The notes below the pieces were generated by a model. It worked only from the letters and a program-made list of their open reading frames with translations. It made no database searches and was not told where the DNA came from. Positions 3,001 to 28,500 of a stretch of DNA of 30,976 nt are shown piece after piece. How positions within the stretch are numbered: the stretch's first letter is position 1; every line of letters begins with the position of its first letter. Source of the DNA: a virus (Duplodnaviria > Heunggongvirae > Uroviricota > Caudoviricetes); IMG/VR virus record IMGVR_UViG_3300030444_000240. One strand, 5' to 3'. A program made the translations under genes and the position numbers.

Positions 3001-3267
3001 TCAGGTCAAAATACCTGGGATGTACAAGGCTCAGTAGGTATGTCTACGGGGTGGTTAGCTAATACCAGTACAGATGGTAATCATAGCCACTCACTGTCCG
3101 GCACAGCAGCATCTGCAGGTGCACACGCGCATACTGTCGGTATTGGTGCTCATACGCACTCTGTTGCGATTGGCTCACATGGACACACCATCACCGTTAA
3201 CGCTGCTGGTAACGCGGAAAACACCGTCAAAAACATCGCATTTAACTACATTGTGAGGCTTGCATAA
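1..3267 (+). CDS. stf: Side tail fiber protein, lambda Stf-like (5' partial; frame open from window position 1)
   Basis: Translation begins [24 protein letters not shown], then a long Ala/Ser/Thr-rich segment with KTSETNA repeats, and ends with PIPWPSD...[10 protein letters not shown] and His-rich GAHTHS/GSHGHT repeats and [11 protein letters not shown], matching the lambda Stf architecture as recalled. The central part (about 1380-2550) is a different, non-repetitive domain, and there is a tandem repeat of a [28 protein letters not shown] unit at about 1129-1350. Confidence 0.9.
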
Positions 3268-3838
3268 TGGCATTCAGAATGAGTGAACAACCACGGACCA
3301 TAAAAATTTATAATCTGCTGGCCGGAACTAATGAATTTATTGGTGAAGGTGACGCATATATTCCACCTCATACAGGTCTGCCTGCAAACAGTACCGATAT
3401 TGCACNNNNNNNNNNNNNNNNNNNNNNNNNNNNNNNNNNNNNNNNNNNNNNNNNNNNNNNNNNNNNNNNNCATCTCGTTGAAGATCATCGGGGTAAAACG
3501 GTTTATGACGTGGCTTCCGGCGACGCGTTATTTATTTCTGAACTCGGACCGCTACCGGAAAATGTTACCTGGTTGTCGCCGGGAGGGGAATATCAGAAGT
3601 GGAACGGCACAGCCTGGGTGAAGGATACGGAAGCAGAAAAACTGTTCCGGATCCGGGAGGCAGAAGAAACAAAAAACAGCCTGATGCAGGTAGCCAGTGA
3701 GCATATTGCGCCACTTCAGGATGCTGTAGATCTGGAAATCGCAACGGAGGAAGAAATCTCGTTGCTGGAAGCATGGAAGAAGTATCGGGTGTTGCTGAAC
3801 CGTGTTGATACATCAACTGCACCTGATATTGAGTGGCC
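3141..3838. repeat. Direct repeat copy 1 (stf 3' end plus tfa), about 700 bp, nearly identical by eye to 27794-28482
   Basis: Aligned by eye: tattggtgctcatacgcact... through ...gatattga(g/a)tggcc, with scattered substitutions. Copy 1 contains the N gap. Confidence 0.8.
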
Positions 3839-3860
3839 GATAATTCCTGTAACATCATAG
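3267..3860 (+). CDS. tfa: Tail fiber assembly protein (Tfa), copy 1; interrupted by an N gap
   Basis: [46 protein letters not shown] ... matches lambda Tfa as recalled; the ATG overlaps the stf stop (TAATG). Residues across 3406-3470 are unknown. Confidence 0.85.
3406..3470. other. Assembly gap or masked bases (65 N)
   Basis: Run of n characters in the sequence. Confidence 1.
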
Positions 3861-3972: not shown

Positions 3973-4926
3973 TTACCATATATCTATGGGTTTTGTTTTC
4001 TGCTCATCTAAACAAAATGCACAGATGTAAGCCCCCTTACTTCGGTTGTACTGAACCGTTTCTAAAGCAGAGTCAAGATGTTTACTATCAAAGTTCCAGC
4101 TTTTTTCCATAACAGAAACACATTTTCTGCAATAGAAACTTTCTTTTGAGTTAGTATCTCCTGAATCATTTTTAGTGTAGCCAAAGAATTTTTTTGCTGA
4201 TTCCTTTGAACATGCGGAAATGGCTGCAGTGAACTCATAATGAGTTTGAAGCATAGCCCATACAATACCTGAAAATTCTTCATCCTCGTCTTCATCTAAT
4301 CCTATATTAATGCCGCCAGAGGAATGTATTGCTTTATATTTATACCTATGCCATATCCAGTGTGCTGATTCAGTATTTAGATAGTTGTGAGCACGTACAA
4401 CTGATGTGAAAATTAGCTCTGGCATTATATCTGTTTTTTTATCAACCGTATGCATAAAACGATTTCTTAGAATGCGCATACTATTAAACCAAGTAATAAA
4501 GTCATCAGGCAGTGATTTAGAGGCGAAAGTATTATATACTTTAATTAAATCTTGGGCGTCTAATGTGTGGAAGTCTGAAAATGAAATGTTACCTTCACTA
4601 TCAGGTTTAGGTGTATTGCGAGTTGCATTCGTGATAAGTAGATAAGGTGATATTTCGACGATAAGTCCTTTTAGTCTGAATTCAATAGATTGAAGTATCA
4701 AATTAAAAGATGTAATCAATTTTGGTCTAGCAAATAACCAATAATGCTCTAAATTTTTAATATCTGATTCTGTATAGAATTCAGACGTTTTACAATAACT
4801 ATTCCAAAGGTTTATATCTCTGTAATCATAAGCTAAATCGGCAATTTTTTCCCAAGCCTCATTTACCATGTGGTCAGCCATTGTATAAAAATCAGTCTTT
4901 GTTGGAATGTCAGTTATCATTATCAA
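3973..4926 (-). CDS. Hypothetical protein with HEPN-like Rx4H motif and C-terminal CxxC...CxxC zinc-ribbon-like motif (candidate Abi-type protein)
   Basis: 317-aa ORF in AT-rich DNA just downstream of tfa. Contains RNRFMH (R-x4-H) in the middle and CRKC...CAFC near the C-terminus. No confident family assignment. Confidence 0.5.
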   Translation of the reverse strand: MIMITDIPTKTDFYTMADHMVNEAWEKIADLAYDYRDINLWNSYCKTSEFYTESDIKNLEHYWLFARPKLITSFNLILQSIEFRLKGLIVEISPYLLITNATRNTPKPDSEGNISFSDFHTLDAQDLIKVYNTFASKSLPDDFITWFNSMRILRNRFMHTVDKKTDIMPELIFTSVVRAHNYLNTESAHWIWHRYKYKAIHSSGGINIGLDEDEDEEFSGIVWAMLQTHYEFTAAISACSKESAKKFFGYTKNDSGDTNSKESFYCRKCVSVMEKSWNFDSKHLDSALETVQYNRSKGAYICAFCLDEQKTKPIDIW

Positions 4927-5696: not shown

Positions 5697-6065
5697 TTAA
5701 ATATTTAGCAGATCCTCTACAATATCATTAAACCCAGATGCCTGTTTAGATACAGAATTGAATAAGTCTCTAAGTGCTTGTGTTTGCTCAAAAGTTTCCC
5801 AAAGTGTTTTATAACTTGGCGTTACAATTGCTAATACTAAGCCTTCCGCCCATGACCATTCATGTTCATCAAAATAGTAGCGATATTTTCTGCTGTATAT
5901 AACAAAATCCTTTTCCTTATATTTAGCATGAAACACAACTTGAATTATATCCTGTGTACCATTAACAAGGTTTTCAGGCGCATCAATTGCCATCCAATTT
6001 ATCATTTTTTGGACAGTTAACTTATTTAATGAAACAATTAGCTTTGTGGTTTTATCGTTATGCAT
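5697..6065 (-). CDS. Hypothetical protein (122 aa), second gene of a two-gene operon
   Basis: ORF in AT-rich DNA; its ATG lies 2 nt after the stop of the upstream ORF (TAAttATG). No recognisable motifs. Confidence 0.5.
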   Translation of the reverse strand: MHNDKTTKLIVSLNKLTVQKMINWMAIDAPENLVNGTQDIIQVVFHAKYKEKDFVIYSRKYRYYFDEHEWSWAEGLVLAIVTPSYKTLWETFEQTQALRDLFNSVSKQASGFNDIVEDLLNI

Positions 6066-6067
6066 AA

Positions 6068-6529
6068 TTAGTCCAGTTGCATATCTTTCACAATTTCGTT
6101 AACTCTTGAGTTGAGTATACTCAACTTCTCATAGAGCTTCCAGGCTTGGTCTTGGTCATTGATATTAATGGAGATTTCTTTTCTTCGAAAGATTCCTTTG
6201 GGTTTGACTTCATCAAAAAATATATCAATCTTTGAGCGTTCCTTGGTTGGAAGCCTGCTGAAAAGGCTTTCAGTTAGCACTGCACACTCAGTAAACTCCT
6301 TACGTATAAATTCTTTCTGAGTAACCCAGTCTCCAATAGCATCATTTATCAATGAGGCTTTTTTTTGAAGATTGCTATGGATTTCAGGTATTCGAACCTT
6401 GTTTCTGAGAGTGGCCTTCAATGAACGCGTCGTAAAAAAAAGTTTTACAGTTACAACAAAACCGACAATACCCGCTAGGGAGGATATGTCAGTTACCGTC
6501 TGTGATAGGGGCCAAGTCAGGATATCCAT
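6068..6529 (-). CDS. Hypothetical protein (153 aa) with one predicted N-terminal transmembrane helix, first gene of a two-gene operon
   Basis: Hydrophobic stretch SSLAGIVGFVVTVKLFF near the N-terminus; tightly coupled to the downstream ORF. Confidence 0.5.
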   Translation of the reverse strand: MDILTWPLSQTVTDISSLAGIVGFVVTVKLFFTTRSLKATLRNKVRIPEIHSNLQKKASLINDAIGDWVTQKEFIRKEFTECAVLTESLFSRLPTKERSKIDIFFDEVKPKGIFRRKEISININDQDQAWKLYEKLSILNSRVNEIVKDMQLD

Positions 6530-6559: not shown

Positions 6560-6585
6560 AAAAAACCCGCATATGCGGGTTTTTT
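6560..6585 (-). terminator. Intrinsic terminator-like hairpin (bidirectional)
   Basis: A-run, cccgc-atat-gcggg stem-loop, T6 run. Confidence 0.5.
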
Positions 6586-6711
6586 CGTCGCTCGGGAGCC
6601 GCGGCTCCTTTGCGTATCCTTTTTTGTCTCCTCACCGTCTGGTCGGTGTCCTGCTGAGACTGCTAACTTCCTGTTTTTGTTGGTGTTGTCCTTACACCGT
6701 CCAATCATGAT

Positions 6712-6744
6712 TGGTGGAGCTGGCGGGAGTTGAACCCGAGTCCG
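6712..6744 (-). other. tmRNA (ssrA) 3'-end-like fragment; probable attachment-site core remnant
   Basis: Reverse complement GGACTCGGGTTCAACTCCCGCCAGCTCCACCA closely matches the E. coli ssrA 3' end as recalled (one mismatch). No tmRNA body upstream. Confidence 0.5.
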
Positions 6745-6816: not shown

Positions 6817-7716
6817 TTATGTCTGGATGTGGTCGTCAACACATCCTCTTTTAAATACAGGCGCTTTTACCTTAGTTGGATCATCTGTTTTAAAGATTTT
6901 CAATCGTTCACTGAAGAACATTACCTCAGATCCTTTGTACCGATCTTGAGCACTGTAGTTTATTCCATATACTAATGATGATGTCTTATACATAGCTTGG
7001 ATCTCAGGAGTGTTATCGTAAGAAACAATCCAAGGTGTTTTAATATTATTCTGTACGACTTTTGCAACCCTAACATGATCATCATGATTATAATGGTTGA
7101 TATATAAACCTTTACCTTTTATGTAATAAGGTGGATCCAAATATGTTAATGAGTTTTGTGGCAATTGAATAACTATTTTTTTAATGAAATCAATTGCATC
7201 CATGTTATATAAATCTATTCTGTGACGATTTTCTGATATTTTATGGATTCGAGAAATCAAATCACTCTTATTATAGCGAGCGTCAAGCTTCCATTTCCCT
7301 TCTTGATTTTTACCGCCAATTACTCCACCTTTTAATATTCCAGAACGATTTGTTCTATTGAGAAAAAAGGTTGAGAAACCAATTGTTAAAAGATCATGGT
7401 CTTTAGGATTATTAATTATATCTTTCTGCCTAAACCATTCATCCATTGTAACTTCAGTTCTTTCAATTAAAGAACATAATTGATCTGCATGATTTAATAC
7501 ACTGTGCCAAAAAGCATAAACAGAAATATTAATATCATTAAGGATGATTTTTTCAGCTGCATTTAGATGTAACAGTTTCAATGCTAAACCAGCACCCCCA
7601 GCATATGGTTCGGCATAATGTATAGGCGAAAGATTATTTTCTTCAATAAGCCGAAGCATGAAATTTGCAAGCTTGCCTTTACCGCCAGGATAGCGAAGTG
7701 GGGTGTTAAAACGCAT
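6817..7716 (-). CDS. DNA N6-adenine methyltransferase, Dam/D12 class
   Basis: N-terminal RYPGGK, EPYAGGAG (AdoMet-binding motif I-like) and DPPY catalytic motif; 299 aa. Confidence 0.8.
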   Translation of the reverse strand: MRFNTPLRYPGGKGKLANFMLRLIEENNLSPIHYAEPYAGGAGLALKLLHLNAAEKIILNDINISVYAFWHSVLNHADQLCSLIERTEVTMDEWFRQKDIINNPKDHDLLTIGFSTFFLNRTNRSGILKGGVIGGKNQEGKWKLDARYNKSDLISRIHKISENRHRIDLYNMDAIDFIKKIVIQLPQNSLTYLDPPYYIKGKGLYINHYNHDDHVRVAKVVQNNIKTPWIVSYDNTPEIQAMYKTSSLVYGINYSAQDRYKGSEVMFFSERLKIFKTDDPTKVKAPVFKRGCVDDHIQT

Positions 7717-7750
7717 ATGATACCTCTAAATGTCAGATCTAAAGTATATC

Positions 7751-7789
7751 AAAAAAAGGGCTTTGTGGCCATCACATAAAGCCCTTTTT
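7751..7789 (-). terminator. Intrinsic terminator between the OLD-like gene and the MTase gene
   Basis: gggcttt-loop-aaagccc hairpin flanked by an A7 run and a T5 run; on the minus strand the stem is followed by a T-run. Confidence 0.6.
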
Positions 7790-7795
7790 AATCAA

Positions 7796-9529
7796 TTAGT
7801 TATCTGACAGATATGATGAGATGGTAGCAGAATCGACACCATGTCCACTTGTCATAATAACTTTAAGACTCTTTATTAGTTCATTCTTGAAGCTATCCGA
7901 TTGCACAGGATTTTTCTCGACCCAATATCGATATGGGTTATCTTTAACTCGCCCTTTTACTTGGGCCTGAAATTGAGTCGTATGTGCAAAATCTTTAAAC
8001 AGTTTTCTAACTATCCCGCCATGGTTTTTGTTAACTTTTTTATAATTATCTATAAGGATTTTTAAATCAATCGGAGCGTTACCAATCTTTAGCGTTGCAA
8101 TTATGTCTTTAGCTGTTTTCATAAAAACAGCTTTTGTAAATTTATTTTTATTTTCCCAATATGCATCATCAGGTGGTAAATTATATAAAAACTCAAAAAT
8201 CATTTGGTCTGGAGGTAAGGTGCTTGGAAGCAAACATAAGTTTTTTTCTTTTTTGGCTTTTTTTGCATTAGCACTATTGTCGTGAACAACATCACCGTCT
8301 AAGACGATCAAGCTTTTAGCTGTAAATTCTGGTATTTTTCTTGCCATTAAGTCAAGCATGGCAGAGCAGCTAATATTTATATTCCCTAATGGATTTAATA
8401 TTTTATTTATTTTTCGATCTGTTATCAATTGTTTGAAAAAGTCGAAACCTTCTTTGTCTTCAAAATATACATTTGCCTTTGGAAGACAAATGTCATCATT
8501 AATTTTTACAGTTTCAACATGTAAATCAGCGTGGATATCTGTCCATGAAAGATTATTCTTTGTTTTAATATCTCCATATGTGTCTGTAAGATATATTGTT
8601 TTAAAGCTATCACTATCTTGTTTTGAACGATTATAGATATCCTCTATTATTAATGGAGAGTGCGAGGTCATGATTATTTGCAGATCGTATTGTTTTGCTG
8701 CTTTAGTTAGAATATTAATTAGCTCTAACTGTGCAGCAGGGAAAAGACCTGCATCGGCTTCATCAATTAACAATATTCCGCCATGATAATCAGAATAAGT
8801 TTCCTTCAATCTTTTAAATGAAAAAATTGCTTGGATTAATTGTCCAACATTATCTTCACCAACAGATACTGATTGGTGATCATAATTGTCACCATGGACA
8901 ACCATTGAATCGATAGTACCTTTTGTTGCTGTTACTGAGCTTCCATTGTTTTTTAGTAAGAGTTGGTTACTCATCATTCTAATTTCATCAGAATTTTCAT
9001 TGATGTACTGAACATCCCGTGTTGAGTAATCAGTCCTTAATGTAATAGGAAGAAGTCGTGCTAAGCTTAAAAAAATAACAGGATGAGTAACGTTTCTACT
9101 TTGGTTTTTTTCCGGTATTGAATCATTTCCCCTGACTACAGGCCTTGATTTATCTCTGTCACTGTAGCTGTATAAACCTAATGTTAGTTTTTCAAGATGT
9201 TTGTTCGATGCACCATCATAGACACTAATTTTGACGTCCATTGAACCAGGAACATCAAATTGTTCTGAAAGCCTAAAATGTTCGCTGAAAGCTGACTTGA
9301 AGCTGCCATTTGTTAATGTTTTATATTGTGTTAAATCAGTCTCAGGGTTTTTGGTAAAGTCCTTTGTAAAGCTAAATATTTGGGCGATAATGCCAAGAAT
9401 TGTGGATTTAGATGTGCCATTTTTACCACAAATAACAGTTAGGCGAGAACCAAACTCGATGTTTATATTTTTCAGTCCGCGAAACTTCACAACATTTATA
9501 TTTTTTAGTTTGGTAATTTGATTTGCCAT
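7796..9529 (-). CDS. OLD-family ATP-dependent nuclease-like protein (ABC ATPase plus C-terminal Toprim-like domain)
   Basis: Walker A ICGKNGTSKST, Walker B ILLIDEAD, TSHSP motif, then C-terminal VYFEDKEGFDFF and LIVLDGD (DxD). Start chosen at MANQITKL (9529), which has a GGAG 9-13 nt upstream and a palindromic hairpin beyond it; the ORF track extends to 9580. Confidence 0.7.
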   Translation of the reverse strand: MANQITKLKNINVVKFRGLKNINIEFGSRLTVICGKNGTSKSTILGIIAQIFSFTKDFTKNPETDLTQYKTLTNGSFKSAFSEHFRLSEQFDVPGSMDVKISVYDGASNKHLEKLTLGLYSYSDRDKSRPVVRGNDSIPEKNQSRNVTHPVIFLSLARLLPITLRTDYSTRDVQYINENSDEIRMMSNQLLLKNNGSSVTATKGTIDSMVVHGDNYDHQSVSVGEDNVGQLIQAIFSFKRLKETYSDYHGGILLIDEADAGLFPAAQLELINILTKAAKQYDLQIIMTSHSPLIIEDIYNRSKQDSDSFKTIYLTDTYGDIKTKNNLSWTDIHADLHVETVKINDDICLPKANVYFEDKEGFDFFKQLITDRKINKILNPLGNINISCSAMLDLMARKIPEFTAKSLIVLDGDVVHDNSANAKKAKKEKNLCLLPSTLPPDQMIFEFLYNLPPDDAYWENKNKFTKAVFMKTAKDIIATLKIGNAPIDLKILIDNYKKVNKNHGGIVRKLFKDFAHTTQFQAQVKGRVKDNPYRYWVEKNPVQSDSFKNELIKSLKVIMTSGHGVDSATISSYLSDN

Positions 9530-9551
9530 GTTTCTATCTTGCTCCGTAAAA

Positions 9552-9570
9552 TGGCCACAAATTGTGGCCA
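9552..9570. other. Perfect 9+1+9 palindrome between the int 3' end and the OLD-like start
   Basis: tggccacaa-a-ttgtggcca; on the minus strand it is followed by ATTTTA. Could be the int terminator or a recombination or regulatory site. Confidence 0.4.
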
Positions 9571-9587
9571 ATAGTTTCATGCTTGGA

Positions 9588-10754
9588 TTATATTGTTATC
9601 TTCTTCAAGCTTGTTTGTCCATCATATTCCTTCAGATATGAGCCATAGTGCCTGAAAAGCATCTCAGGCCCTTTATGCCCCATTTGAGCTGCAAGCCAAA
9701 ACAGGTTTGCTCCCCGGCTGATATGTCTGGTGGCGAATGTATGCCTGGTTTGATATGGGTTTCTGTAACGAATACCTGCTTTTCGCAATGTTGGCACCCA
9801 TGCTTTTTTCCTAATTGCATCAGCACTTGCCCAGGGTTTATTGGTCTTTGGATCTTCAAAGACAGTAGCATCCTTCATGAATGTAAATGGCTTCTGGTTT
9901 ATCAACGCCAACATTGCTTCTTCAGTCAGTTCAACTTTACGGGTACCGGCTTTTGTCTTTGTTCCTTTGATAACTCCGACAACACTTGCGCTCTGAACAT
10001 GGGCTGTTTTTCCAACAAAGTCGATATCATGCCATCGTAGGGCACATAATTCAGAACTACGCAGGCCTGTATGTATGGCGAACCGGAACAGATTTTCCCA
10101 TTGTTTGTTTCCGGCTGCTGCTAGTAATGCATCAACTTCTGCTGGTGATAGCGGATCAACCACATAGCTGCTTTCTGCTTCTGACTTATCACTTTGGTAG
10201 CGCGAAGCAGTTACCAACGATACGGGGTTAATTTGAAGTACCCCATCGGTTACGGCTTCATCAAGTGCTGACCGCAGGAAAGATAACTGGTTGCGAATTG
10301 TTTTTAAGGTCGTTTTCTGGCTTTGAATCCACGCTTTCAGGATTGCTGGTGTTAATTCACTTGCAGGGCAAATGTGGAGTGAGGCTAACGCACTACGGCA
10401 TTTTTTATAACCACCAATCGTAGATGGTGAAAGTTTTCTCGTTTCGCAGATTTCAAGGTATTCGTCCAGGTACATTTTTACCGTTTTGCCTGCAGCAGCA
10501 TTACCAAAAATTTTCAAACGAGCAGAACGGGGAAAATATTCCGCATAAATGAATGTTCCCCTTTCGATCTTATTATGAATTTCGCCGAGTGTGCGCTCGG
10601 CGTATTTAATGTTCTTTGGTGTTACTTCCAGATTGGAAAGAGGCTCACGACATTTAACGCCTTTGTAGGTGAAAGTTATATTGATCGTTTCGCCCTGGCG
10701 GTGTTTCCTGATTGTTACGCCGCGCGGTAGTTTGAGCAGTTTTGTCTGGCCCAT
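9588..10754 (-). CDS. int: Tyrosine site-specific integrase
   Basis: 388 aa; C-terminal catalytic region with RHTFATRH (HxxR) and LFWLAAQMGHKGPEMLFRHYGSY (catalytic Tyr); N-terminal arm-binding-like segment. Confidence 0.9.
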   Translation of the reverse strand: MGQTKLLKLPRGVTIRKHRQGETINITFTYKGVKCREPLSNLEVTPKNIKYAERTLGEIHNKIERGTFIYAEYFPRSARLKIFGNAAAGKTVKMYLDEYLEICETRKLSPSTIGGYKKCRSALASLHICPASELTPAILKAWIQSQKTTLKTIRNQLSFLRSALDEAVTDGVLQINPVSLVTASRYQSDKSEAESSYVVDPLSPAEVDALLAAAGNKQWENLFRFAIHTGLRSSELCALRWHDIDFVGKTAHVQSASVVGVIKGTKTKAGTRKVELTEEAMLALINQKPFTFMKDATVFEDPKTNKPWASADAIRKKAWVPTLRKAGIRYRNPYQTRHTFATRHISRGANLFWLAAQMGHKGPEMLFRHYGSYLKEYDGQTSLKKITI

Positions 10755-15169: not shown

Positions 15170-16002
15170 ACAGTTTAACGGCAAATAACCGTTTGTCGCA
15201 ACAGCTGGTGGTCAGTGTCGCTGAACACCTGTTGTTACGGCATGAATGCAGATTACCAAATCTCCTGGCTGTAAGTAACCACAGAGAACTTTACCTGACT
15301 GTGGGGGGCGAGTTGTGCAGGAACTTAACCGCTGGTTTCGTGACGGAAGAGGACTTTATGTTCATGTTATTCGTTGGGAGCCAGAAACACAGCGCGTTAT
15401 CTATCTTCGCAAAGACTACCCGCATGAGTGCTTTAGTCCTTTGTGGAAATTCAGGCGTGATTTTGTTGAGTGTGAAGGACCACCAGCACATTGATTCTGC
15501 CATTCCGGGACGTTACACTGTTCAGGCACCTTATAAAGCGGGTGCCGGGATTGGCGTCCTGGAATTGATCAAGGCGATATATGACGCGCCAGCGTCTTTT
15601 TTATCGTCCGCATTTGCTCACATCAAAGTTATGGTGGGCTGGGCGGGGGCATCGAAAGATGCGCCGGTTTCCTTGATCACCGGTTACGCCAACCCCGTTC
15701 AGTTCACCACCAGCGAAATTGGCGTTTCCGGTGGTGGAAGTATTTCACCGATCAAGGAGGCTGCCATCATGGCTACTGTCCCAGCCCTCACTCGTCTGAA
15801 TGATGAAGACTTACATAAACTCAGTTATGTAACAACTGCACTACGTGCTCTGCGCAAGGTAACTCTTTCGGATCCGCAGGCACATCAGGTTCTGGTAGAA
15901 ACCCTTCTTAACTTGCAAGCTGAACGTATTCGTCTGGCGGATAAGGCTAATTTTCATATTCACCGTCTCCTGAATATCAGCGGAGGGCATCGTCATGCTT
16001 AA
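15166..16002 (+). CDS. Hypothetical early ORF, possibly a composite of several small genes or frameshifted
   Basis: A 278-aa ORF, but a protein-like alternative frame runs through 15309-15480 after a G6 tract (15303-15308), and there is an internal RBS-ATG at about 15769 (AAGGAGG ... ATGGCTACT). Confidence 0.3.
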   Translation: MNSLTANNRLSQQLVVSVAEHLLLRHECRLPNLLAVSNHRELYLTVGGELCRNLTAGFVTEEDFMFMLFVGSQKHSALSIFAKTTRMSALVLCGNSGVILLSVKDHQHIDSAIPGRYTVQAPYKAGAGIGVLELIKAIYDAPASFLSSAFAHIKVMVGWAGASKDAPVSLITGYANPVQFTTSEIGVSGGGSISPIKEAAIMATVPALTRLNDEDLHKLSYVTTALRALRKVTLSDPQAHQVLVETLLNLQAERIRLADKANFHIHRLLNISGGHRHA

Positions 16003-27908: not shown

Positions 27909-28482
27909 GGCTTGCATAATGGCATTCAGAATGAGTGAACAACCACGGACCATAAAAATTTATAATCTGCTGGCCGGAACTAATGAATTTATTGGTGAAG
28001 GTGACGCATATATTCCGCCTCATACAGGTCTGCCAGCAAACAGTACCGATATTGCACCGCCAGATATTCCGGCAGGCTTCGTGGCTGTTTTCAACAGTGA
28101 TGAGGCATCGTGGCATCTCGTTGAAGATCATCGGGGTAAAACGGTTTATGACGTGGCTTCCGGCGACGCGTTATTTATTTCTGAACTCGGTCCGTTACCG
28201 GAAAATGCCACTTGGTTATCCCCGGAAGGGGAGTTTCAGAAGTGGAACGGCACAGCCTGGGTGAAAGATGCAGAAGCAGAAAAACTATTCCGGATCCGGG
28301 AGGCGGAAGAAACAAAAAACAGCCTGATGCAGGCAGCGAATGAGCATATTGCGCCACTTCAGGATGCTGTAGATCTGGAAATCGCAACGGAGGAAGAAAA
28401 CTCGTTGCTGGAAGCCTGGAAAAAGTATCGGGTGTTGCTGAACCGTGTTAATACAACAACTGCTCCGGATATTGAATGGCCA
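27794..28482. repeat. Direct repeat copy 2 (stf 3' end plus tfa), nearly identical by eye to 3141-3838
   Basis: See copy 1; the junction with Nu1 is at about 27794-27796. Confidence 0.8.
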
Positions 28483-28500
28483 GTAGCACCTATAGGGTAA
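27919..28500 (+). CDS. tfa: Tail fiber assembly protein (Tfa), copy 2, intact
   Basis: 193 aa, [74 protein letters not shown]...; nearly identical to copy 1 until the C-terminal tail. Confidence 0.9.

Follow-up and report, generated by a model that had tools for sequence, protein, structure and literature searches.

A conserved pair of genes for an OLD-type ATPase and a PD-λ-5-family adenine methylase as a probable restriction-modification-like defence module at a prophage end

Do an OLD-type ATPase gene and the adenine methylase gene that follows it at the end of an E. coli prophage belong to one defence system, or are they two unrelated passengers? The question is raised by IMG/VR virus record IMGVR_UViG_3300030444_000240 (Caudoviricetes), a stretch of 30,976 nucleotides that was analysed as a whole and is called the window here. 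An initial annotation, made from the letters alone, had placed both open reading frames (ORFs) and their motifs where we also find them, and had left the choice between a modification-controlled nuclease system and two independent morons. The two genes are:

6817–7716, minus strand: 299-amino-acid (aa) D12/Dam-class N6-adenine DNA methyltransferase of the PD-λ-5 B family (Pfam, PADLOC)
7796–9529, minus strand: effector gene encoding a 577-aa OLD-type ABC ATPase with a Toprim-like domain (ORF, Pfam, AlphaFold2 model)

Most likely, the two genes form a defence module that resembles restriction-modification and has not been described before. With a probability of about 0.6, we read the two genes as a single methylation-keyed defence module with an OLD-type effector, carried as cargo on a temperate phage.

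Linkage of the two genes and the DNA between them

A scan of genomes with the ATPase family, using one genome per species, yielded 80 loci from Gamma- and Betaproteobacteria, Geobacter, Mycobacterium, Bacteroidota, Acidobacteria and Listeria. A methylase gene of the PD-λ-5 B type adjoins the ATPase gene in 78 of these loci, and the other two break off at a contig edge immediately past the ATPase gene, leaving 78 of 78 informative loci with a neighbouring methylase. Of 101 pairs, 92 have both genes on one strand with the ATPase gene immediately before the methylase gene. These results show that the linkage between the two genes is essentially obligate and that their order is nearly fixed.

The pair was found in 85 of 5426 complete E. 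coli genomes, including those of the ST131 strains JJ1886 and JJ1887 and of strain 042. The window is 99.9–100% identical over the pair to E. coli KCJ3K291, and both of its proteins are 100% identical to those of another IMG/VR viral contig (L094). More distant E. coli copies occur in a further prophage (85% identity), among the conjugation genes of an integrative and conjugative element (ICE; 66% nucleotide identity), and, also diverged, in an e14-like element between icd and the integrase of that element; all three keep the same gene order. In P. aeruginosa prophages the pair lies downstream of a repressor gene; the Halomonas pair comes after guaB-guaA and has its two genes in the opposite order. 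Two genes that precede the Halomonas methylase gene were considered as components of the system and discarded on being identified as guaB and guaA. Both ORFs are intact in Citrobacter phage phiNP, an isolated temperate phage (OR565852.1). The phiNP methylase, an intact D12 ORF of 293 aa at the end of the record (L002, 126–1007), is unannotated in GenBank, and its partner is annotated there as 'AAA family ATPase'.

The DNA between the two genes contains a promoter-like site and a terminator-like hairpin:

7743–7771, minus strand: promoter-like site TGGCCA-17-TATACT with an extended −10 (TG), the −10 at 7743–7748, just upstream of the methylase gene (consensus scan)
7751–7787, minus strand: terminator-like hairpin (AAAGGGCTTT / AAAGCCCTTT, 13-nt loop) with a T7 run, between the ATPase and methylase genes (sequence, folding)

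The hairpin occupies 7755–7787, is followed by seven T's ending at 7751, and folds with −17.7 kcal/mol (z = −3.46). A consensus terminator scan missed it because of its 13-nt loop. It is kept in close relatives only, namely the Ec-RL2-1X and phiNP copies, and not in the ICE, e14-like or Pseudomonas copies. The strong intrinsic terminator of the initial annotation is real as a hairpin with a T7 run, but it is specific to this lineage, does not define the system and provides no argument for the independence of the two genes. In the consensus scan, promoter-like sites are no more numerous in the region than expected by chance; the ICE and e14-like copies likewise have a −10-like element (TATAAT and TATTAT, respectively) ahead of the methylase gene. 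Independent expression of the methylase in this lineage is plausible from these sequences. In most distant relatives the gap between the two genes is ~30–100 bases.

The terminator-like hairpin and the promoter-like site that separate the genes in this lineage are what could be cited for two unrelated neighbouring morons, a stand-alone exclusion nuclease resembling the Class 1 OLD proteins and a methylase that is an orphan or serves anti-restriction; orphan methylases are common in prophages, and those of ST131 prophages have been described as orphan and silent (PMC4659465). However, the genes are adjacent in 78/78 informative loci across phyla, with fixed order, on at least four unrelated element types and down to 24–32% ATPase identity, and most relatives have closely spaced genes without the hairpin. 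We regard this reading as the least probable of all and, on the co-occurrence data, reject the two independent morons. The same co-occurrence, which spans several phyla and different types of mobile element, together with the ATPase domain and the Toprim-like fold described below, supports the other reading of the initial annotation, a putative modification-controlled nuclease module.

The methylase and its alternative partners

The assignment of the smaller gene to the D12/Dam class was borne out by Pfam (MethyltransfD12, 2.2e-19). The protein carries RYPGGK, and its motif I (EPYAGGAG, 7588–7611) comes before motif IV (DPPY, 7126–7137). By far its best match is the PADLOC model PD-Lambda-5_B (PDLC04018; 5.1e-124, full length); MTase_II, the PADLOC model for Type II methylases, matched at 3.7e-107, and the match to the NCBIfam dam subfamily lies below the cut-off of that model. 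The initial annotation had missed this family, membership of which strengthens its defence reading and makes PD-λ-5 the closest comparator. Two names considered for the methylase were set aside: M.EcoMIV as a REBASE name, because M.EcoMIV lies on a different prophage (ST131 methylome paper), and M.Eco1886ORF14565P, a guess that RefSeq locus tags did not confirm.

PD-λ-5, found in E. coli ECOR7 by functional selection, is a validated system whose two genes are described as "ParB/HEPN, methyltransferase" (Vassallo et al. 2022; PMC9519451). It protected broadly, affecting all but one of the ten phages tested, and its authors labelled it a compacted 'RM+Abi' system (PMC9519451). Its cloning needed a strain deleted for the mrr region (PMC9519451), which implies that its methylase modifies host DNA.

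The effector of PD-λ-5, PD-λ-5 A, was looked for beside the window methylase. None of the six ORFs tested between 3973 and 9580 matched any PD-Lambda-5_A model, on which genuine PD-λ-5 A proteins score 1e-74 to 1e-207. A 502-aa hypothetical gene past the attachment (att) site and next to pinE in E. coli 20AR1039 (L001, 10102–11610) was rejected as PD-λ-5 A, since it has no PADLOC or Pfam match despite its similar size and position.

Phage contigs were also searched in the reverse direction, with the methylase family, and 64 loci carry a methylase with 37% identity or more. The partner was the ATPase in 21 of them, PD-λ-5 A in 30 and both in 2; the rest had neither, some of them being cut by contig ends. 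The ATPase partners measured 544–581 aa and lay directly upstream of the methylase. The window methylase is ~50% identical to methylases that adjoin PD-λ-5 A, motif I (EPYAGGAG) and motif IV (DPPY) are invariant in the methylases of either partner type, and methylase clusters formed at 50–55% identity mix the partner types. This mixture shows that effectors have been swapped on a common methylase core. Three-gene clusters of ATPase, PD-λ-5 A and methylase occur in Enterovibrio and four other genomes. Counting the phage contigs as well, clusters of this kind were noted in Enterovibrio norvegicus (L011, 5001–9209) and at L015, L022, L047, L091, L105 and L106; they could be a fuller 'RM+Abi' form ancestral to both two-gene forms.

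The scans also bear on whether the pair is an addiction cassette that stabilises a prophage or ICE by post-segregational killing, in which loss of the element would dilute the methylase, the nuclease would kill the cell, and defence would be incidental. The pair is always on mobile elements, and the nuclease gene was never seen without the methylase gene while about a dozen methylase loci lack either partner, a decay pattern such as a toxin and its antidote would be expected to show. Some of these partner-less loci are, however, cut by contig ends, and addiction is a general property of restriction-modification (R-M) systems too, which makes it compatible with defence. The sister system PD-λ-5, with its common methylase, was moreover selected directly for phage protection (PMC9519451). 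We consider addiction as the primary role to be quite unlikely.

The ATPase–Toprim-like protein and its possible action

The effector gene can be extended to an alternative upstream ATG, which gives a longer ORF reaching 9580; RefSeq homologues and family conservation begin at the ATG at 9529. In the resulting 577-aa protein, an ABC ATPase (~residues 1–335) is followed by a Toprim-like domain and helical tail (~340–577), with the following elements:

9401–9427, minus strand: Walker A / P-loop GKNGTSKST, G35–T43 (translation)
8753–8776, minus strand: Walker B ILLIDEAD, I252–D259 (translation)
8654–8668, minus strand: H-loop TSHSP, after Walker B (translation)
8180–8488, minus strand: Toprim-like core, ~residues 348–450 (predicted structure and motifs)

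The ATPase half is clear from profile hidden Markov models, in agreement with the initial annotation: Pfam AAA_15 matched at 3.8e-15, AAA_21 at 4.1e-12 and AAA_23 at 4e-07. The PADLOC models for PtuA, AriA and GajA matched the protein at 1e-14 to 4e-20, through the ATPase motifs only, and in phmmer the solved structures of PtuA, AriA and T. scotoductus OLD (TsOLD) aligned to the P-loop and the Walker B/H-loop stretches. Among 41 homologues, G35, K36, N37, G38, T39, K41 and S42 are invariant. Between Walker A and Walker B the family has a specific insert (~residues 55–215) that is strand-rich and highly conserved, with H84-F85-R86, R129, R133, R145-N146 and H149-P150 invariant in the same 41 homologues. 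Judged by its sequence, this insert would be the first candidate for the part of the protein that reads DNA or its methylation. The family comprises 1106 homologues at E <= 1e-5 that keep the full length of ~570 aa and reach Pseudomonas, Halomonas and Lysinibacillus. The protein corresponds to PHROG 3940 (1.7e-200), whose function is listed as unknown in PHROGs.

The C-terminal half was modelled with AlphaFold2 as part of the whole protein, from the alignment of the 41 homologues (mean pLDDT 89.1). The order of strands and helices in the model is that of a Toprim fold: strand 1 (352–356) ends in E357-D358 and strand 3 (407–410) ends in D411-G-D413, and strand 4 of the core is followed by LPPDQ. 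In the DNA, the NVYFEDKEG motif places the E357 codon at 8459–8461 and E357-D358 at 8456–8461, and the LIVLDGD motif places D411-G-D413 at 8291–8299. Residues E357, D358, D411, D413, P435, P440, D441 and K512 are invariant in the 41 homologues. Walker A, Walker B, the H-loop, the Toprim E, the DxD and K512 are all kept in ATPases only 24–32% identical to the window protein.

When the full-length model was compared with the PDB using Foldseek, the top two of 1386 matches were TsOLD (6p74; 1.4e-11, 568 columns) and GajA (8sm3; 1.5e-11), with low TM-scores (~0.3) for which the relative placement of the domains could account. The C-terminal model alone found AriB, BpOLD and TsOLD near the top at E values of 0.14–0.4, which are not significant, and the structural matches of this domain are the Toprim domains of AriB, OLD and retron proteins. 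Sequence searches did not recognise this domain. Residues 320–577 had no relevant match in Pfam (E <= 10) or PADLOC (E <= 1), a profile of the C-terminal family found only chance matches among all PDB sequences, and hhalign against P2 Old paired the Walker B/H-loop stretch alone with the family alignment and gave nothing with the C-terminal alignment. The Toprim-like region of the initial annotation is thus supported by the modelled fold and the E and DxD motifs, while its recognition is weaker than had been implied, as no sequence profile detects it. Structure and motifs make the Toprim half likely without proving it, and the 577-aa protein as a whole is likely a diverged OLD-type ATPase–Toprim protein.

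These features suggest how a methylation-keyed module could work. The D12 methylase, probably expressed from its own promoter, would place N6-methyladenine (m6A) on a motif in resident DNA. The OLD-type protein would sense DNA that lacks the mark by means of its ABC ATPase, possibly through the 55–215 insert, and the Toprim-like domain, acting as a two-metal nuclease, would then fire against the invader. Phage defence, protection of self DNA by the methylase and methylation reading by the effector are inferences. The module would be a sister of PD-λ-5, in which one methylase family works with a ParB/HEPN effector, an ATPase–Toprim effector or both.

The main uncertainty is what the Toprim domain cuts, DNA or tRNA and other RNA. 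GajA and TsOLD cut DNA. Several points weigh against the methylation-keyed module. PARIS AriB is an abortive tRNase rather than a simple restriction enzyme (PMC11464382), and a 2026 preprint (10.64898/2026.07.10.737580) reports P2 Old to be an abortive tRNase too. Known domains for reading methylation or sequence were not identified, and nothing in the searchable literature was found to describe the pair or any system of an OLD protein with a methylase.

Because AriB and, by that preprint, P2 Old are tRNases and the alternative partner of the methylase carries a HEPN domain, a methylation-gated abortive mechanism is a serious rival, although on balance a doubtful one. The protein would then be a sentinel or guard like PARIS or P2 Old, and cleavage of tRNA or other RNA by its Toprim domain would kill the cell or arrest it. 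Its trigger would be unmethylated DNA or phage anti-restriction proteins that attack the methylase; the methylase would set the self state, and the response would be suicide in place of DNA restriction. Consistent with this, both alternative partners, the HEPN protein PD-λ-5 A and the OLD/PARIS Toprim proteins, come from families whose characterised members are mostly RNases or abortive infection (Abi) effectors (PMC11464382; 10.64898/2026.07.10.737580), the HEPN domain of PD-λ-5 A being of a kind that is usually an RNase, and the authors of PD-λ-5 chose the label 'RM+Abi' (PMC9519451). The C-terminal domain has AriB among its best structural matches, and OLD-ABC modules have been proposed as backup suicidal effectors on BREX and R-M-like systems (PMC12839542). 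The similarity to AriB is, however, no better than that to DNA-cutting OLD nucleases, and a guard that has only a methylase to guard is hard to rationalise in a two-gene form. A more general proposal, in which one self-marking methylase core carries interchangeable abortive RNase-type effectors and here the ATPase senses unmethylated DNA and a Toprim tRNase responds, is a shade more doubtful and can be put forward only tentatively. Self would then be recognised by DNA methylation, as in R-M, with abortive infection as the outcome.

The ATPase could also be taken as a sensor of modified nucleotides. In a Metis-like scheme the methylase would add m6A to host DNA, and the effector would be triggered by methylated mononucleotides or fragments released from a host chromosome that a lytic phage degrades. 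Metis and PUA-Cal-HAD systems do sense m6-dAMP (10.1101/2025.11.05.686725; 10.64898/2026.01.15.699771), MisA homologues have been reported in operons with adenine methylases and systems with their own methylase have been predicted (10.1101/2025.11.05.686725), and the effector has a nucleotide-binding ATPase. On the other hand, Pfam, PADLOC and NCBIfam detected no PUA-like or other known m6-dAMP-binding domain, the abundant Dam-dependent m6A already present in E. coli leaves little signal for an extra methylase to add, and the scheme is purely speculative for this ATPase family. We consider it very improbable.

Prophage setting and comparison with known systems

The surroundings of the pair are consistent with the cargo slot of the initial annotation, AT-rich DNA between an integrase gene and a tmRNA fragment. 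The two flanking features are:

6712–6736, minus strand: 25-base 3'-end fragment of the transfer-messenger RNA (tmRNA) gene ssrA, the att core, marking the prophage end (sequence match)
9588–10754, minus strand: tyrosine integrase gene (int), upstream neighbour of the ATPase gene (Pfam Arm-DNA-bind_2 5.5e-23, Phage_integrase 1.2e-16)

In the ORF list, int, the ATPase gene and the methylase gene are three consecutive minus-strand genes with int first; the statement that the methylase is the only same-strand neighbour of the ATPase gene was therefore incorrect. The GC content over the pair is low (0.31–0.36). The tmRNA 3'-end fragment lies ~80 bases past the methylase stop codon and is the single match in the window, with zero matches in shuffled sequences; a complete tmRNA was not found in the window by ARAGORN. 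Genomes that share the int–ATPase–methylase block differ in the DNA past the att fragment: JJ1886 has the chromosomal gene glaH there, KCJ3K291 an intA island, and 20AR1039 pinE and tail genes. This variation shows that the pair is cargo at the extreme int/att end of an ssrA-type prophage.

Several further observations concern the rest of the window. Past the att fragment lie two tightly packed minus-strand ORFs of 153 aa (6068–6529) and 122 aa (5697–6065), which have no match in Pfam, PADLOC, NCBIfam or PHROGs and may be a two-gene cassette; a bidirectional terminator-like hairpin (~6560–6586) lies between them and the fragment. On the same side of the att site, a 317-aa ORF (3973–4926, minus strand, TTG start) adjoins dinI in low-GC DNA and carries RNRFMH, an Rx4H HEPN-like motif. 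It also had no match in Pfam, PADLOC, NCBIfam or PHROGs, and could be another uncharacterised cargo or defence gene. The plus strand has two full-length copies of Rfam IS009, at 3619–3817 (229 bits) and 28262–28460 (212 bits), which fall at the ends of two tail-fibre-assembly-like ORFs (3267–3860 and 27919–28500, respectively); the two tail-fibre-assembly-type modules, ~24.6 kb apart, suggest tandem or mosaic prophage DNA. In the early region, isrK (64 bits) is found next to C4 antisense RNA (82 bits) on the plus strand (15526–15714); together they resemble a P1/P7-type antisense-controlled antirepressor module within a lambdoid prophage.

Among known systems, PD-λ-5 shares with the window pair its methylase family, its occurrence as a two-gene prophage cassette and the usual position of the effector gene directly upstream of the methylase gene. 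It differs in the effector, which in PD-λ-5 is an unrelated ParB-like/HEPN protein of ~450–510 aa and here combines an ABC ATPase with a Toprim-like domain. By the stated A + B composition of PD-Lambda-5, the PADLOC rules would probably miss the locus as that system. The PADLOC v2 models also appear not to cover the pair as a system of its own, so that defence inventories and phage-therapy host-range predictions probably overlook it, with the methylase likely logged as an orphan. The pair may in turn offer a mechanistic handle on PD-λ-5, having the same methylase family with a different effector.

The OLD family has been divided into Class 1 (P2 Old and T. scotoductus OLD), Class 2 (Gabija GajA), Class 3 (retron Eco8) and Class 4 (PARIS AriA/AriB) (PMC10568477). 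The window protein resembles this family in that an OLD-type ABC ATPase at its N-terminus is fused to an apparently Toprim-like C-terminal part, in which an E and a DxD are conserved, and the pair resembles P2 old and PARIS in being carried by a prophage. In contrast to the window pair, none of the four published classes has a methylase partner (PMC10568477). Class 1 proteins are encoded by single genes without a conserved partner, whereas the window ATPase has the methylase in 78/78 informative loci. As initially annotated, the UvrD-type helicase partner of Gabija and the DUF4435 partner of PARIS are both missing: the ATPase gene is flanked by the integrase and D12 methylase genes, with no UvrD/PcrA/Rep-like gene (gajB) beside it, and DUF4435 gave no match. 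In PARIS, AriA and AriB are separate genes, unlike the domains of the window protein, which lie in one 577-aa polypeptide, and no reverse transcriptase gene like that of retron Eco8 occurs near the pair. The C-terminal domain also differs from those of P2 Old and the solved OLD and AriB structures in having no detectable sequence similarity to them.

It is an open question by what means OLD proteins tell non-self from self, and the number of OLD classes is likewise raised in reviews (PMC10568477). A widespread OLD-type effector obligately tied to a methylase would offer a simple, testable answer for one branch of the family. If the abortive, methylation-coupled reading were true, the pair would represent a fifth OLD class and a direct mechanistic bridge between R-M and Abi.

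Like Type II R-M systems with a D12 methylase, the pair has a methylase with intact motifs, tightly linked to a nuclease-like gene, apparently under its own promoter and carried by mobile elements. Its putative nuclease is of the ATPase-bearing Toprim/OLD type, unlike the PD-(D/E)XK, HNH, GIY-YIG or PLD enzymes of those systems, and its ABC ATPase speaks against an enzyme of classical Type II. OLD-type ABC ATPases with Toprim or other nucleases also occur within modification-based defence loci, as OLD-ABC R-M-like or backup modules known from comparative genomics (Krishnan et al. 2020, NAR, cited in PMC12839542), a study in which this gene neighbourhood could already figure; these are add-ons to large BREX loci (PMC12839542), whereas the window pair is a minimal two-gene system. 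The general theme of a methylase joined to a nuclease is already familiar, and the new part is the OLD-type effector in such a pair. Judged from its genes, the window pair appears to act like an R-M system, is built like an OLD nuclease and fits no defined family.

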